From the UHGV virus genome UHGV-0120889: a stretch of DNA of 64,000 nt; one strand, given 5' to 3'. Position numbers and translations under genes: made by a program. This stretch comes from a virus. Below, piece by piece: positions 20,631 to 55,100 of this stretch (positions are counted from its first letter, which is position 1; every line of letters starts with the position of its first letter). Below the pieces are notes generated by a model. That model worked only from the letters and a program-made list of their open reading frames with translations, searched no databases and was not told the origin of the DNA.

Positions 20631-20990
20631 TTACTGGTCTAACCAGTTGTTGACATTCGAATAACTTCTTCTGGTGGCAAAACTTTGGAAAATGTGCATC
20701 TTTTTACCTCTCCCTTGTGTGGATATTTCAACCACTCCTGCACATTCTAAAGTTTTAACGCACGCTGCTGCTTTTGTTTTCTTTATCCCAATATCTGCTG
20801 CAATTTTCCTTGTGCTGGGCGTGAAGCGTGAATTTCCTCCAAGCTTATACCAGTTGTGCAGGTAGCAGTATACGATCTTGTCATATAAGTCAAGAACAAC
20901 AACCTCACCAGTTGTGTCATTCAAAACTTTTGACATAGACAGTATTTCAAGGGGGACTTTAAGATATAGCAGCTTATCCCCATCTTTCAT
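20631..20990 (-). CDS. putative HTH DNA-binding protein (119 aa)
   Basis: Helix-turn-helix-like segment (RKIAADIGIKKTKAAACVKTLECAGVV); adjacent to palindrome array. Confidence 0.45.
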   Translation of the reverse strand: MKDGDKLLYLKVPLEILSMSKVLNDTTGEVVVLDLYDKIVYCYLHNWYKLGGNSRFTPSTRKIAADIGIKKTKAAACVKTLECAGVVEISTQGRGKKMHIFQSFATRRSYSNVNNWLDQ

Positions 20991-41009: not shown

Positions 41010-41869
41010 AAGTTGTAAAACGGGACGGTAGAGAAGAGTTCTATAACGGAATTAAGGTGATCAAGGCGGCAGAGTCCGCCTTACTTGAGTCTGGACATAC
41101 TGAAGAAGAAGCTTACCGGATCGCTTGTGCGGTTAATGAAGTTGTTGCTAACAATCTGCCAACCGACCAGTGCACGATCTCTGTAAAAAATATCCATATC
41201 CTTGTTGAAGATGCTCTTATGGATATGGGTTTAAAATGTGCAGCCAGAGAATACATCCAGTATAGACAGACAAGAGATAATAACAGAGAGGCAGGTGGAA
41301 AACTACTTGCAGATATTAGTGGCTTCTTGGATCGAACTTGTGATGAATTTACAAAAGAAAACGCAAATAAGCCCACTAATCATGTACACACTCATCGTGA
41401 CCTGCTTGCAGGCATCCTTAGCAAACACCTTGCATCAACACAGATCCTGCCAGACCGTGTTTCAGAAGAGCACAATAAAGGCTTCATCCATGTGCATGAT
41501 CTTGACTACTTGATCAGTCCGTTAACAAACTGTTGTTTGGTAAATTATCCAGATATGTTGGAAAACGGATTCAACATTGGCAACGCCCATGTCAGTAAGC
41601 CGAAGTCAATAGGGGTTGCAACAACAATCCTTAGTCAAATCTCTAGCGCGGTAGCTAGTGCTCAATATGGTGGTCAGACTATGAGCCATATTGATCATTA
41701 TCTGGCACAGTATGCTGAAGCAACCTATGAGAAGAACCTTAAATTTTGCCAGGAACATTGGTTGCCGGATGCTGAAACTGTTGCAATGCAAATGACAGAT
41801 AAAGATGTATTTGACAGCATGCAGACTTTGCTCTATCAAATCAATACGTTAACCTCTGTCAACGGTTAA
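41006..41869 (+). CDS. nrdD: anaerobic ribonucleoside-triphosphate reductase NrdD, exon 1 (3' boundary approximate)
   Basis: ATP-cone start MKVVKRDGREE, IHVHDLD and NCCL motifs; ORF ends where intron-like sequence begins. Confidence 0.7.
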   Translation: MKVVKRDGREEFYNGIKVIKAAESALLESGHTEEEAYRIACAVNEVVANNLPTDQCTISVKNIHILVEDALMDMGLKCAAREYIQYRQTRDNNREAGGKLLADISGFLDRTCDEFTKENANKPTNHVHTHRDLLAGILSKHLASTQILPDRVSEEHNKGFIHVHDLDYLISPLTNCCLVNYPDMLENGFNIGNAHVSKPKSIGVATTILSQISSAVASAQYGGQTMSHIDHYLAQYAEATYEKNLKFCQEHWLPDAETVAMQMTDKDVFDSMQTLLYQINTLTSVNG

Positions 41870-42717
41870 CAAACTGGCCGTTGTAAAACTCTCCTAACCT
41901 CATAAGAGGGGTCGGTAAATCCGGCTAACGGGGAACGCTAAGGCGAAAGCTATGCCAATCCCGTGACTAGTTCTTACAGGAGTTGGAACGGTTGTAACGA
42001 CTAACGAAAGGCAGAGATGCTTGACAAACATTTCTGAACCAAGTAGTGTAGGGGTTAGTTGAAATACTAACTTCGAAATGGAGAGGCTCTATGAAAAAGA
42101 TCATTCTTAATGGTGAAGAATCGAACTATGTGATTGATGAGGTTGGAAACGTATACGGAAAACGTGGAATGCTACACCCAATATTGTGGGGAGGTTATGG
42201 AAAAGGTAACAAGCATGTTAAACGCCGTTATATGTACTCTTTCAACCACAAAGGTAAAAAGATTCGAATCCAAACCTCAAGGGTTGTTGCCTTGTATTGT
42301 TTGCCAGATGTCCCAGAAGACCCTGAAAACTGGGAAGTGAATCATAAAGATGGCAATACATTGAATGATCATCCGTCTAACCTAGAGTGGGTTTTGCCGG
42401 AAGATAATAAGAGACATGCTTTCCGAACAGGACTTTGTCCAGGTAAGTGCTATAGGAAAGTGCAGGCATACAAAGGGAAAATCTTGGTGGGTGAATATCC
42501 TTCACTCTATGCCTGTGCAAAAGCCTTAAATTTGAACGTAGGTAACGTTCACAGGGCTATCGAAGGAAATGCCGAAGGTAAGCATCTCACAATAAAGGGT
42601 TATTATCTTATTGAAGTAGAGTAAGAGATAGTCTGGCCCTGTGGAAACACAGGGAGGAGACAGCAGACTCCATTCATCACATTAAGTTTAGGACTAGATA
42701 CCTCGGTCTTTGGTAGA
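41870..42717 (+). mobile_element. putative group I intron in nrdD carrying an HNH homing endonuclease gene (boundaries approximate)
   Basis: ~850 bp interrupts nrdD between N- and C-terminal halves; contains free-standing HNH ORF; flanking non-coding parts are structured. Confidence 0.55.
42091..42624 (+). CDS. HNH homing endonuclease (intron-encoded)
   Basis: Classic HNH motif EVNHKDGNTLNDHPSNLEWV; located inside nrdD intervening sequence. Confidence 0.75.
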   Translation: MKKIILNGEESNYVIDEVGNVYGKRGMLHPILWGGYGKGNKHVKRRYMYSFNHKGKKIRIQTSRVVALYCLPDVPEDPENWEVNHKDGNTLNDHPSNLEWVLPEDNKRHAFRTGLCPGKCYRKVQAYKGKILVGEYPSLYACAKALNLNVGNVHRAIEGNAEGKHLTIKGYYLIEVE

Positions 42718-49023: not shown

Positions 49024-49257
49024 ATGAAAGTTAAATTTCTTACAGATTTAGGGTACCCTTCCTTGGTTGACTGTGTTGGTAAAATTGTGGAAGCAAAACG
49101 GCTATCTGCAAACGAGAATGTTGTCCTGGTTAAAGGGAAGGATTTACTAGCTGCAGGTGCAGAGTCTGGCAGGATCTCTCCTGATTATATGTATTACCTA
49201 TCTTTAAGTAATCTGCCAGAGCGAGGCGGTAAAGGCCTTGAAGTTGTGGAGGAGTGA
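49024..49257 (+). CDS. small acidic protein, paralog family member
   Basis: MKVKFLTD N-terminus and acidic C-terminus GLEVVEE shared with other family members. Confidence 0.45.
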   Translation: MKVKFLTDLGYPSLVDCVGKIVEAKRLSANENVVLVKGKDLLAAGAESGRISPDYMYYLSLSNLPERGGKGLEVVEE

Positions 49258-50181: not shown

Positions 50182-50278
50182 GATGCTATCTGGGGTATTG
50201 TTACTGGTAGCCATCTTAGGTGGTGCAGTTCTGATGTATAACTATCTTGAAAAAGGAGACAGCAATGGCAAAAAATAA
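50171..50278 (+). CDS. micro-ORF encoding hydrophobic peptide (35 aa)
   Basis: MFIEMLSGVLLLVAILGGAVLMYNYL; no clear RBS. Confidence 0.3.
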   Translation: MFIEMLSGVLLLVAILGGAVLMYNYLEKGDSNGKK

Positions 50279-50450
50279 ATCTTTAGAGCAGGCTGAAAAC
50301 CTTCTCCACGAGCTGGTAAAGGAGTGGAAAGTTGAATACTCAGATTTTAATGCACGAGAGGGTGAAGATTATTGGCCTACGGAGCGCTCAGAGGGCGAAT
50401 GGTATCAAGATTTTATAGAGTGGTTATATCAGACGTGCGATGAGGGGTGA
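50265..50450 (+). CDS. hypothetical protein
   Basis: ATG 50265 with AAGGAG RBS. Confidence 0.45.
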   Translation: MAKNKSLEQAENLLHELVKEWKVEYSDFNAREGEDYWPTERSEGEWYQDFIEWLYQTCDEG

Positions 50451-52387: not shown

Positions 52388-52671
52388 TAATGAAAAAGAT
52401 TAACAGTAGTGAAGTCGAGTTTAAACTTGTCGGAAAAGGCACTTACTGGGAAGTTCGTCAAAAGGTATATTTGTTCGGTCTTATTCCTTACTGGTCTAAA
52501 TTCTACTGGGGAGCTAACGAGTGGGGAAGATACGCCACCAAATCAATGGCACTTATTGGTATAGCAGAGTACATTGCAGCCAGAGATAGGGTTGGAGACA
52601 CTTATTACTATACTGCGGACGATATTCGTAACAGTGTTTACGTCCCACAACCACCTGATAGAGACCGTTGA
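52384..52671 (+). CDS. hypothetical protein
   Basis: ORF track. Confidence 0.4.
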   Translation: MIMKKINSSEVEFKLVGKGTYWEVRQKVYLFGLIPYWSKFYWGANEWGRYATKSMALIGIAEYIAARDRVGDTYYYTADDIRNSVYVPQPPDRDR

Positions 52672-52882
52672 TGAAAGTTAAAGTTTTAGATTCAAGCTTC
52701 TATATTGGTCAGGAGCCCTTAGTGGGGAAGTGTTTACTGCTGTCCCTAACGAAGATTACCCCGACCTTTTAAAAATAAAAGGAGCAGACCTGATCACCGC
52801 TGGTGCACCTGAATATTATTTCGGGGAAGAGTCCTATTATACCTTTGGGGTAGGGTCAGATGCAGATATTGTAGAGCTGTGA
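52671..52882 (+). pseudogene. frameshifted member of the small acidic protein family (or programmed -1 frameshift)
   Basis: 33-codon ORF MKVKVLDSSFYIGQEP... stops at 52770; -1 frame continues KIKGADLITAGAPEYYFGEESYYTFGVGSDADIVEL with family-type C-terminus; junction in TTTTAAAAATAAAA run. Confidence 0.4.
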
Positions 52883-52894
52883 TGGGTAACCGTT

Positions 52895-53293
52895 GTGAAA
52901 AATAAACTGTTCAAAGTTACAATGAAAATTCGCGGAGCTTGGAGCGTAAAGCAAGGGCGTATTCCAGAATTTGAGAAAGACTTCTACGTAGTCTCCACCT
53001 CGGAGGAGGCTGCATGCTGGCAAGCTGGCTATGCCTATGCAAGAACCTGGTACGAAGGATACCAGACTGGGGGCTATGACGGAGAAATTATCAGCAAGGG
53101 TGTAGAAGAAATTAATGTGTTGACAAGTGAAAAAGTTTTTGTTATAGTGCATCCAGATTCCAGAGTGAAGCATTACTGGAATGCCAGAACAAAAACTTGG
53201 ACACCGTTTGCAGATTCTGCTACGCCACTTTTAAACCAGAAAGCTCTTGACTCTGCCCCAAGTTATGGGGTTGTTGAAGAAAAGCTAAACTGA
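52895..53293 (+). CDS. hypothetical protein, paralog of 55100..55495
   Basis: Shared C-terminal motif HP.S...YW.....WTP....AT.L with 55100..55495. Confidence 0.45.
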   Translation: MKNKLFKVTMKIRGAWSVKQGRIPEFEKDFYVVSTSEEAACWQAGYAYARTWYEGYQTGGYDGEIISKGVEEINVLTSEKVFVIVHPDSRVKHYWNARTKTWTPFADSATPLLNQKALDSAPSYGVVEEKLN

Positions 53294-53310
53294 AACAGTG
53301 AGGTGCCACT

Positions 53311-53601
53311 ATGATGGATTTAGTTCTGAATATTGATAACGCAGGAGAGCTTAAAGACGATGGTGTAACAAGCATGGACAAACCCTGCTCTGCCGAGGTT
53401 GACTCAAAATGGACCTACAAGTTTGACGGAGAGATCTTCGCAAATGATGAGAAGGTTGTAGATGCTGCAGCCATTTTGAACGCTTTAGGGTACGACCCTG
53501 TGAATTCTTTGATCAAGGATCCTGTTGAGTTTGCAGAGTATGTTCGAAAAATGGCAGATCTTGCTGTGGATATTTTAAAAACTATCGATAACAAGCTGTA
53601 A
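53311..53601 (+). CDS. hypothetical acidic protein
   Basis: ORF track; AGGTG RBS. Confidence 0.4.
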   Translation: MMDLVLNIDNAGELKDDGVTSMDKPCSAEVDSKWTYKFDGEIFANDEKVVDAAAILNALGYDPVNSLIKDPVEFAEYVRKMADLAVDILKTIDNKL

Positions 53602-54499: not shown

Positions 54500-54763
54500 A
54501 TGATTGTTTATTTTAAAACTTCAGGTGGATACCCTGATTCTCAAAGCTTGATCGGAAAAACGTGCACAGCATACTCACCTCTTGATGAGGAGGTAAGTGA
54601 TATTCTACGAAATATGTATCGGATTGACCCCCAAGAAGCTTTTGATCAAAACCTTGTATTTGTCAAGGGCTCAGACATGAAGTCTTTGGGAGCATTCCCT
54701 GAAGCAGATGATGATGCCGTTTATTCGTTCATGACTCCTTTTGAAGCTATGGTTGTTGGGTGA
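54500..54763 (+). CDS. hypothetical small protein
   Basis: ORF track. Confidence 0.4.
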   Translation: MIVYFKTSGGYPDSQSLIGKTCTAYSPLDEEVSDILRNMYRIDPQEAFDQNLVFVKGSDMKSLGAFPEADDDAVYSFMTPFEAMVVG

Positions 54764-54767
54764 TAAT

Positions 54768-55100
54768 ATGAAAGTACGCTTTATTGGTGAAACAATTCCT
54801 GTGCATCTCCGGTCTCCTGAGGATTCTGCAGATCTTGCATCTCAAAAGGCGAGAGGTTATGATAAGAAAGTAACCTCAACTGATGTAGTGCTTGAGGCTA
54901 CTAGTCTACCTGACCCTGCTGCATTCTTTAATCATTATGGGTACTATTTCAGCAATCTGATGAATATCGGTGAGCTTGTGTTTATTAGTGGTGGAGAGAT
55001 TGTTAGCAAGCTTGGCGGCGATCCGGATGTCTTTCATGAAACCTGTCCTTTTGCATTTGTGGTAGGTTCAGATGTGGAAGTTATTGAGGAGGTGCGGTAA
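54768..55100 (+). CDS. small acidic protein, paralog family member
   Basis: MKVRFIGE N-terminus at internal ATG 54768; C-terminus SDVEVIEEVR. Confidence 0.4.
   Translation: MKVRFIGETIPVHLRSPEDSADLASQKARGYDKKVTSTDVVLEATSLPDPAAFFNHYGYYFSNLMNIGELVFISGGEIVSKLGGDPDVFHETCPFAFVVGSDVEVIEEVR

Follow-up and report, generated by a model that had tools for sequence, protein, structure and literature searches.

Reading frames at the locus and the phrog_5009 family

The window (the whole 64,000-nt stretch of DNA analysed here) contains an ATG at position 52671 that shares one base with the TGA of the gene upstream and opens a 33-codon ORF, MKVKVLDSSFYIGQEPLVGKCLLLSLTKITPTF, on the plus strand. This frame is closed by a TAA (52770–52772) within a run of T and A residues, TTTTAAAAATAAAA (52767–52780), and no single uninterrupted ORF of approximately 70–84 codons was found at the locus. 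No stop codon interrupts the −1 frame between 52682 and a TGA at 52880–52882; past the frame-0 TAA it encodes 36 further codons, the final residues being GSDADIVEL in a C-terminal end that reads ...GVGSDADIVEL. Translation of both frames confirmed this arrangement, which had been described in a sequence-only reading of the window. That reading proposed that the two halves together would make a family member of normal length, broken in the T/A homopolymer run, and that the locus was either a pseudogene or the site of a programmed −1 shift.

The frame homologous to the family switches well before the stop codon. From codon 21 onwards (VFTAVPNEDYPDLLKIK...), 13 codons upstream of the T/A run, it is the −1 frame that is homologous. 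The residues 21–33 of the frame-0 ORF (CLLLSLTKITPTF, encoded with the TAA by 52731–52772 on the plus strand) have no family homology and no counterpart among the aligned relatives, in which the same DNA is read in the other frame to give VFTAVPNEDYPDLL. The 5′ remnant in the original frame (52671–52729, plus strand) comprises codons 1–19 and two bases of codon 20 (MKVKVLDSSFYIGQEPLVG-K) of an ORF129-type phrog_5009 gene, and the 3′ remnant in the −1 frame (52730–52882, plus strand) comprises codons 21–70 and the TGA. Gene callers report the latter as a 50-aa ORF with a GTG start, and in hmmsearch it matched a local family HMM with E = 1.7e-30, far above chance. The addition of one A after 52729 restored a 70-aa protein, MKVKVLDSSFYIGQEPLVGKVFTAVPNEDYPDLLKIKGADLITAGAPEYYFGEESYYTFGVGSDADIVEL, which aligned end to end with phrog_5009 (positions 1–69 of 74, E = 3.1e-34), as did both parental proteins described below.

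The phage itself is rV5-like (Vequintavirus) and infects E. coli. A 1.5-kb query from the locus retrieved 119 phage records with a top identity of 97.6%, and an 18-kb query from the window gave approximately 97–98% identity to evolved rV5 phages and to BASEL phages. Eighteen GenBank records in the MG0656xx series, named 'Campylobacter phage' (host C. jejuni), showed at least 95% identity to E. coli rV5-like phages at the locus, and these are probably mislabelled or contaminant genomes. Comparison with rV5_ev158 also revealed a segment of approximately 800 nt in the window (41865–42663) that rV5_ev158 lacks, located within the region of the anaerobic ribonucleotide reductase large subunit and containing an ORF for an HNH_3/I-HmuI-like endonuclease (42091–42624); no Rfam intron matched this segment. 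Conversely, two segments of rV5_ev158 are missing from the window, one of approximately 585 nt, corresponding to an EndoVII gene within the terminase gene, and one of approximately 790 nt (L003 28193–28986).

The family to which the locus belongs is real. Three more distant paralogs were found in the window, all on the plus strand: a 77-aa protein at 49024–49257 (hmmsearch E = 2.7e-7 among 440 window ORFs, also recruited by jackhmmer and supported by alignment), an 87-aa protein at 54500–54763 (phrog_5009 E = 1.2e-4, hmmsearch E = 1.3e-3, also recruited by jackhmmer) and a 110-aa protein at 54768–55100 (hmmsearch E = 9e-7, supported by alignment). Phrog_5009 consists of small Vequintavirus hypothetical proteins predicted to be SH3-like beta-barrels, for which the small barrels of the KOW, SH3 and PsaE folds are the candidate nearest systems. 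A profile search of 1.84 billion cluster representatives returned just 21 matches at E ≤ 0.001; a second family search yielded 52 protein clusters, mostly of 60–90 aa, none of them with a Pfam domain or an informative name. Pfam likewise returned no match when queried with the repaired protein, with either parent or with five candidate paralogs. The members share the pattern MKVK(I/L)L...GY.G...VGKVV.A...I.G.(D/E)L..AGA...F...Y.F...E(V/I)VE. Literature searches on frameshifts in rV5 and Vequintavirus and on escape mutants of BASEL Vequintaviruses found nothing on the gene at 52671–52882. In the DRT10 study of Bas52, escape mutations map to Bas52_0087 and not to bas52_0156, the counterpart of the ORF129-type gene in that phage.

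Fusion of two tandem paralogs and loss of one A

Approximately 110 GenBank relatives of the window phage carry two genes at this position. In FFH2, CarlMeissner and rV5_ev158 the adjacent genes ORF129 (74 aa) and ORF130 (84 aa) overlap by 11 nt, and both belong to phrog_5009 (ORF129 and ORF130 are AHN83719.1 and AHN83720.1 in FFH2; the corresponding pairs are bas48_0158 and bas48_0157 in CarlMeissner and bas52_0156 and bas52_0155 in RudolfGeigy). The flanks of the window locus were colinear with FFH2, CarlMeissner and rV5_ev158 at 91–99% identity, and the slot is bounded in the window and in its Vequintavirus relatives by a 93-aa gene on one side and, on the other, by a 123/132-aa gene upstream of a ribosome hibernation factor. 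Within this shared slot the window differs from the relatives in having one gene instead of two and in having its frame broken at codon 20. A 601-nt FFH2 query across both genes was matched over at least 80% of its length in 116 of 118 GenBank records, and the match was a single contiguous one in all of the best 60 of these 118 records. With the window query, all 60 of the matches listed were split in two pieces, which spanned 257 nt more than the window. Alignments with the relatives resolved two separate differences, a gap of 256 nt and a gap of 1 nt.

The larger gap, which the sequence-only reading had missed, makes the gene a chimera of the two adjacent paralogs. It joins the first 39 codons of an ORF129-type gene in frame to the last 31 codons of an ORF130-type gene; since 256 = 3 × 85 + 1 and the two genes lie one frame apart, the product of the deletion is in register and in frame. 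The junction is a 9-nt stretch, AGGAGCAGA (52780–52788, plus strand), common to the ORF129- and ORF130-type genes of CarlMeissner-like parents and situated in the conserved G-x-D-L-I-x-A-G-A motif of both paralogs. The sequence to its left is derived from ORF129, and that from 52789 onwards from ORF130. The ORF130-derived segment (52789–52882, plus strand; …LITAGAPEYYFGEESYYTFGVGSDADIVEL and the stop codon) matched the 3′ ends of ORF130 of FFH2 and CarlMeissner bar single substitutions. Adjacent parents, a junction in shared sequence and the preservation of register and frame identify the gene as a chimera produced by deletion between paralogs.

An ancestor with two tandem overlapping paralogs lost the 256 nt between the copies to give an in-frame 70-aa chimera, with strands 1–3 of the barrel contributed by ORF129 and strands 4–5 by ORF130. 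An AlphaFold2 model of a 96%-identical chimera (mean pLDDT 96.4, pTM 0.83) contained five strands and one helix. The junction falls in the helix (residues 38–43) that connects strands 3 and 4, which makes it plausible that the chimera folds. The event resembles the Lepore-type globin fusions, in which adjacent homologous genes are joined in register and in frame at a shared sequence while the intervening 3′ half of one and 5′ half of the other are lost. It also resembles other chimeras of tandem paralogs in that the fusion recurs with different junctions, as described below. It differs from chimeras made by classical homologous recombination in that the identity at the junction is just 9–11 nt, in a region of approximately 24 nt where homology is imperfect. 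Replication slippage could have produced the fusion, as could recombination of the unequal homologous or microhomology-mediated type, and because of the short junction identity the fusion may be of the microhomology-mediated or the slippage kind.

The second difference is the loss of one A from codon 20 (Lys). Where the intact relatives have GGGGAAAG, GGGAAAG or GGAAAAG, the window has GGGGAAG (52724–52730, plus strand), and in comparison with the ORF129-type genes of CarlMeissner and rV5_ev158 the missing A is the sole difference in the whole 5′ remnant (52671–52729). The indel sits in this G4A3 tract, 40 nt upstream of the T/A run. The run itself (52767–52780, plus strand) is unmutated: its length and sequence were the same in all aligned intact, chimeric and frameshifted relatives, and in the ancestral frame it encodes L-L-K-I-K. 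It holds the stop codon at which the broken frame ends, but the break assigned to it by the sequence-only reading lies elsewhere.

The exact repaired 70-aa protein (P0006) was found unbroken on four public contigs. One of these, L006 (ENA ERZ28620781, a 135.6-kb scaffold), is 99.9% identical to the window over 6.2 kb, from which it differs by four substitutions and two single-A indels. One of the two indels is at the frameshift site, and it is the only one inside the gene. The other concerns a different gene: at 50271–50276 the window has A6 and L006 (positions 510–783) has A7, which breaks a 61-aa gene (window 50265–50450) whose frame is uninterrupted in both the window and rV5_ev158. This is a second single-A coding indel between near-identical genomes. 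In GenBank, the best matches to an 81-nt query from the window were 98.8% identical and spanned 82 nt. None of approximately 110 records matched any of three frameshifted 81-nt queries at 100%, and all rows listed spanned 82 nt, with the extra A present. Loss of one A from the G4A3 tract is the second step in the history of the gene. Since L006 carries the intact fusion, the chimera came first and the frameshift later, and very recently.

Recoding, separate genes, artefact or pseudogene

A two-frame gene of normal total length could also be a functional one. In programmed recoding, a −1 ribosomal frameshift, either at the T/A run or at G GGG AAG, or transcriptional slippage would give the full-length protein. 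The downstream frame is indeed in the correct direction for this (−1) and was open in all five carriers examined. In the window a G precedes the GGG codon, so that the P-site tRNA-Gly might re-pair one base back, and G GGG AAG is preceded by an AGGAG at a distance of 7 nt. In their overlapping frames, the −1 position of the downstream frame and the nearby A/T- and G-rich runs, the two ORFs are similar to known programmed −1 sites (dnaX, A AAA AAG; the G/GT-type sites of tail-assembly chaperones). The window nevertheless differs from such sites: a slippery heptamer, a stimulatory structure and a conserved layout are all missing, and homology passes to the −1 frame 40 nt before the proposed run. 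A scan of frame 0 from 52671 to ACC TTT, completed by visual inspection of the final pair, C TTT TAA, yielded no X XXY YYZ heptamer; the region covered includes the whole overlap (52682–52772). At the nearest candidate, G GGG AAG, the A-site AAG (Lys) would be unable to re-pair as GAA, and two carriers of the same one-base loss (L010 and L016) have A GGG, which removes the P-site option. For the two candidate sites, pseudoknot-free folding of the downstream RNA gave minimum free energies of −8.6 kcal/mol (z = −0.96 against shuffled sequences) and −14.8 kcal/mol (z = +0.57), and the fold of a 101-nt context had z = −1.78, equalled by 8 of 200 shuffles. No downstream fold distinct from shuffled sequence was thus detected. 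Polymerase stuttering fares no better, as the T4, A5 and A4 runs present are too short for it; no homopolymer of the length used in slippage or contingency (approximately 7–9 nt or more) occurs at the locus, where the tracts are G4, A2 (A3 in the intact allele), T4, A5 and A4. A shift at the T/A run would, moreover, retain 13 non-homologous residues in the protein. Programmed frameshift sites are conserved, but the two-frame layout was missing from approximately 110 GenBank relatives, none of which needs a shift, and from the 99.9% sibling L006; among public contigs the break is confined to about 3%. From the sequence, programmed frameshifting at 52671–52882 is not supported, and the probability that we would assign to any form of recoding is close to negligible. 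It is also highly improbable that the locus now expresses two small genes, a 33-aa peptide (52671–52772) and a 50-aa protein from the GTG at 52730. Gene callers predict a 50–54-aa ORF in all carriers, and the 33-aa ORF retains the native start and the coupling to the upstream gene. However, the GTG lies inside the translated 33-codon ORF and is poorly spaced from any ribosome binding site, with GGGG just 2 nt and AGGAG 14 nt upstream, and in another carrier, L015, the remnant contains a further nonsense codon. The structural model places strand 1 at residues 2–5 and strands 2–5 past residue 21, so that the frameshift cuts after strand 1 and neither fragment would be expected to form the barrel.

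If neither reading of the broken frame as functional holds, the break might still be a sequencing or assembly error, the phage truly having GGGGAAAG and an intact 70-aa chimeric gene. The difference amounts to one nucleotide of homopolymer length, the deletion was seen in none of approximately 110 GenBank genomes, and the sibling L006 is intact and itself has the other single-A indel at 50271–50276. An identical change in otherwise near-identical genomes is also the pattern that a context-specific artefact would leave. Against this, the 50-aa −1-frame product was found on five public contigs, drawn from ENA and from Logan, two assembly resources that are independent of each other, although the samples behind the contigs may be related or the read sets shared. 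Over 6.15 kb, one of the contigs (L005, ERZ1309454, with the contig name NODE_20…cov_74.2) matches the window at 100% identity. The change in the tract is merely from A3 to A2, and short-read consensus errors are very rare at tracts of this kind. Absence from approximately 110 GenBank genomes is only mildly surprising, and not very unlikely, for an allele present on about 3% of public contigs. An indel scan of the 64 kb against rV5_ev158 detected many intergenic or mutually compensating indels, and only three uncompensated frameshift indels in annotated coding sequences: the codon-20 site, the indel at 20705 and a third in a 32-aa hypothetical gene. The scan revealed no other unexplained coding frameshift of the kind seen at codon 20. 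At approximately 20705, the window has A5 in place of A4 near the 3′ end of an HTH 'transcriptional regulator / replication initiation' gene (20631–20990, minus strand), which replaces the last approximately 20 residues and gives a protein of 119 aa, compared with 116 aa in rV5_ev158. No GenBank record matched this window allele at 100%, and 15 of the 15 rows listed were without the extra base. The 119-aa form was nevertheless present on 10 public contigs, and the indel is a trait of the lineage rather than an error; the lineage includes both the broken allele (five contigs) and the intact chimera (four contigs). A general homopolymer error in the assembly was rejected from the indel scan together with the occurrence of the 20705 indel on these 10 contigs. 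An artefact at codon 20 is improbable, and the loss of the A is, to judge from the assemblies, probably a real mutation. Of the outcomes that the sequence-only reading had anticipated from a comparison with related genomes, an uninterrupted ORF was indeed found in the relatives, while an assembly error does not appear to account for the break, since it is found on five contigs.

We therefore read the locus as a twice-mutated and now inactive member of phrog_5009, most likely a pseudogene, with a probability of approximately 0.8. Of the two possibilities named in the sequence-only reading, the pseudogene arising by frameshift is the one supported by the exact repaired protein in L006, and the programmed shift is not. 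Ribosomes that start at the ATG at 52671 would make a 33-residue peptide consisting of strand 1 and 13 nonsense residues and terminate at 52772. The other 50 codons would be left in the −1 frame, with a GTG as their sole start, inside a translated region and behind a poorly spaced ribosome binding site. Since complete genomes of approximately 137 kb carry the broken allele, the gene is dispensable. The carrier L015 has, in addition to the one-A loss, a GAG to TAG nonsense mutation at codon 71 of the remnant, just ahead of the ORF130 start (L015 1442–1680), which is consistent with ongoing decay. A point against inactivity is that the 50 codons past the break carry no damage in the window and may still be expressed, although a recent event would leave them in the same state. 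For annotation, 52671–52882 should be treated as one frameshifted chimeric gene and neither as two ORFs nor as a recoding site.

Recurrence of both lesions in other genomes

The same two lesions were not restricted to the lineage of the window. Family searches recovered 50–54-aa ORFs starting at the same internal GTG in four further contigs (L010, L014, L015 and L016). Their DNA showed an identical loss, from GGGAAAG to GGGAAG, and all four keep the two-gene arrangement. L014 differs from the GenBank phage RudolfGeigy by three substitutions and a one-A gap in 3142 nt (99.87% identity), the gap being the sole difference within the phrog_5009 gene, and L015 is 99.68% identical to L014. L016 and L010, which are 94% identical to each other, have a JohannBauhin-type local haplotype, GTAGGGAAAG. 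At least three backgrounds therefore carry the one-A loss (the window lineage, L014/L015 and L016/L010), either through independent events or through spread by recombination, and both tract lengths occur in near-identical genomes, as in the window and L006 (99.9%) and in L014 and RudolfGeigy (99.87%). Fusions were also found with more than one junction. Type A, in AGGAGCAGA, is shared by the window, L006 and L009, and types B and C lie approximately 20 nt further on, in CCGCTGGTGCA, in L007, L008 and L011–L013; as judged from these junction sequences, the fusion arose at least twice. Rough counts, taken from listed cluster members, gave at least 267 intact contigs, approximately 15 chimeric ones (about 5%) and approximately 9 with the one-A loss (about 3%). 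Searches for the exact junction and frameshift patterns returned zero matches in IMG/VR, JGI metagenome contigs and GTDB genome contigs. IMG/VR and GTDB were also without the pattern of the intact allele; they therefore hold no matching Vequintavirus sequence and provide no denominators.

Other rearrangements were observed among homologs of the region 52671–53601 of the window. P0026 is a 41-aa protein of the ORF130 type with an internal in-frame deletion. P0034 (68 aa) joins an ORF130 N-terminus, through a 'KVV' microhomology, to the C-terminal end of the 53311–53601 homolog, which lies two genes further downstream. In the neighbourhood of the frameshift site, AGTGGGGAAG forms an exact 10-nt direct repeat with its copies 201 nt apart (52520–52529 and 52721–52730), and three of the four copies of GGGGAAG in the 64-kb window fall within a stretch of 307 nt around the site (52520–52529, 52721–52730 and 52823–52829). 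Templated mutation from a quasi-repeat was considered and dropped: the inverted partner is absent, and L010 and L016 (GTAGGGAAG) do not fit.

The recurrence of the one-A loss on at least three backgrounds exceeds what is expected for a weak A3 tract. The same base might be hit repeatedly because loss is selected or because the site is a mutational hot spot; micro gene conversion and a context-specific artefact are the other candidates. The loss could accordingly be real but non-neutral, either recurrently selected (for example through sensing by host defence or a cost on some hosts) or the product of a hot spot or on-off switch; this would refine the pseudogene explanation rather than exclude it, and we regard it as possible though unlikely. 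The identical GGGAAAG to GGGAAG change on its several backgrounds speaks for it, with the window lineage just 0.1% from L006. So does the fact that, in the first 60 nt, this was the one disabling change observed despite other A3 and T4 runs there, and that the same gene pair was hit by independent fusion deletions with at least two junctions and by the deletions in P0026 and P0034. However, A3 and G4 are far shorter than known contingency tracts, a single event could have spread via short-patch recombination, and no defence system or phenotype has been tied to the phrog_5009 family. The survey is also biased, as a recognisable 50–54-aa ORF arises only from breaks upstream of the GTG. It is rather doubtful that the recurrent A loss and the two or more fusion deletions mark the SH3-like pair as a target of repeated inactivation, for example because it is sensed by a defence system, or as a hot spot or switch.

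The pseudogene in the window is a known kind of event, a frameshifted chimera of tandem paralogs in an accessory, early-gene-like region of a phage genome, and on its own, as an ordinary pseudogene of a well-known phage genus, it is of low general interest. Only the repeated occurrence of both lesions makes the locus worth following up. The tandem SH3-like gene pair is unusually fragile in nature, the fusion being found in approximately 5% and the identical one-base loss in approximately 3% of public contigs. If this recurrence reflects selection, phrog_5009 proteins would be candidates for studies of host interaction and defence triggering in BASEL-type Vequintaviruses, which are easily manipulated.
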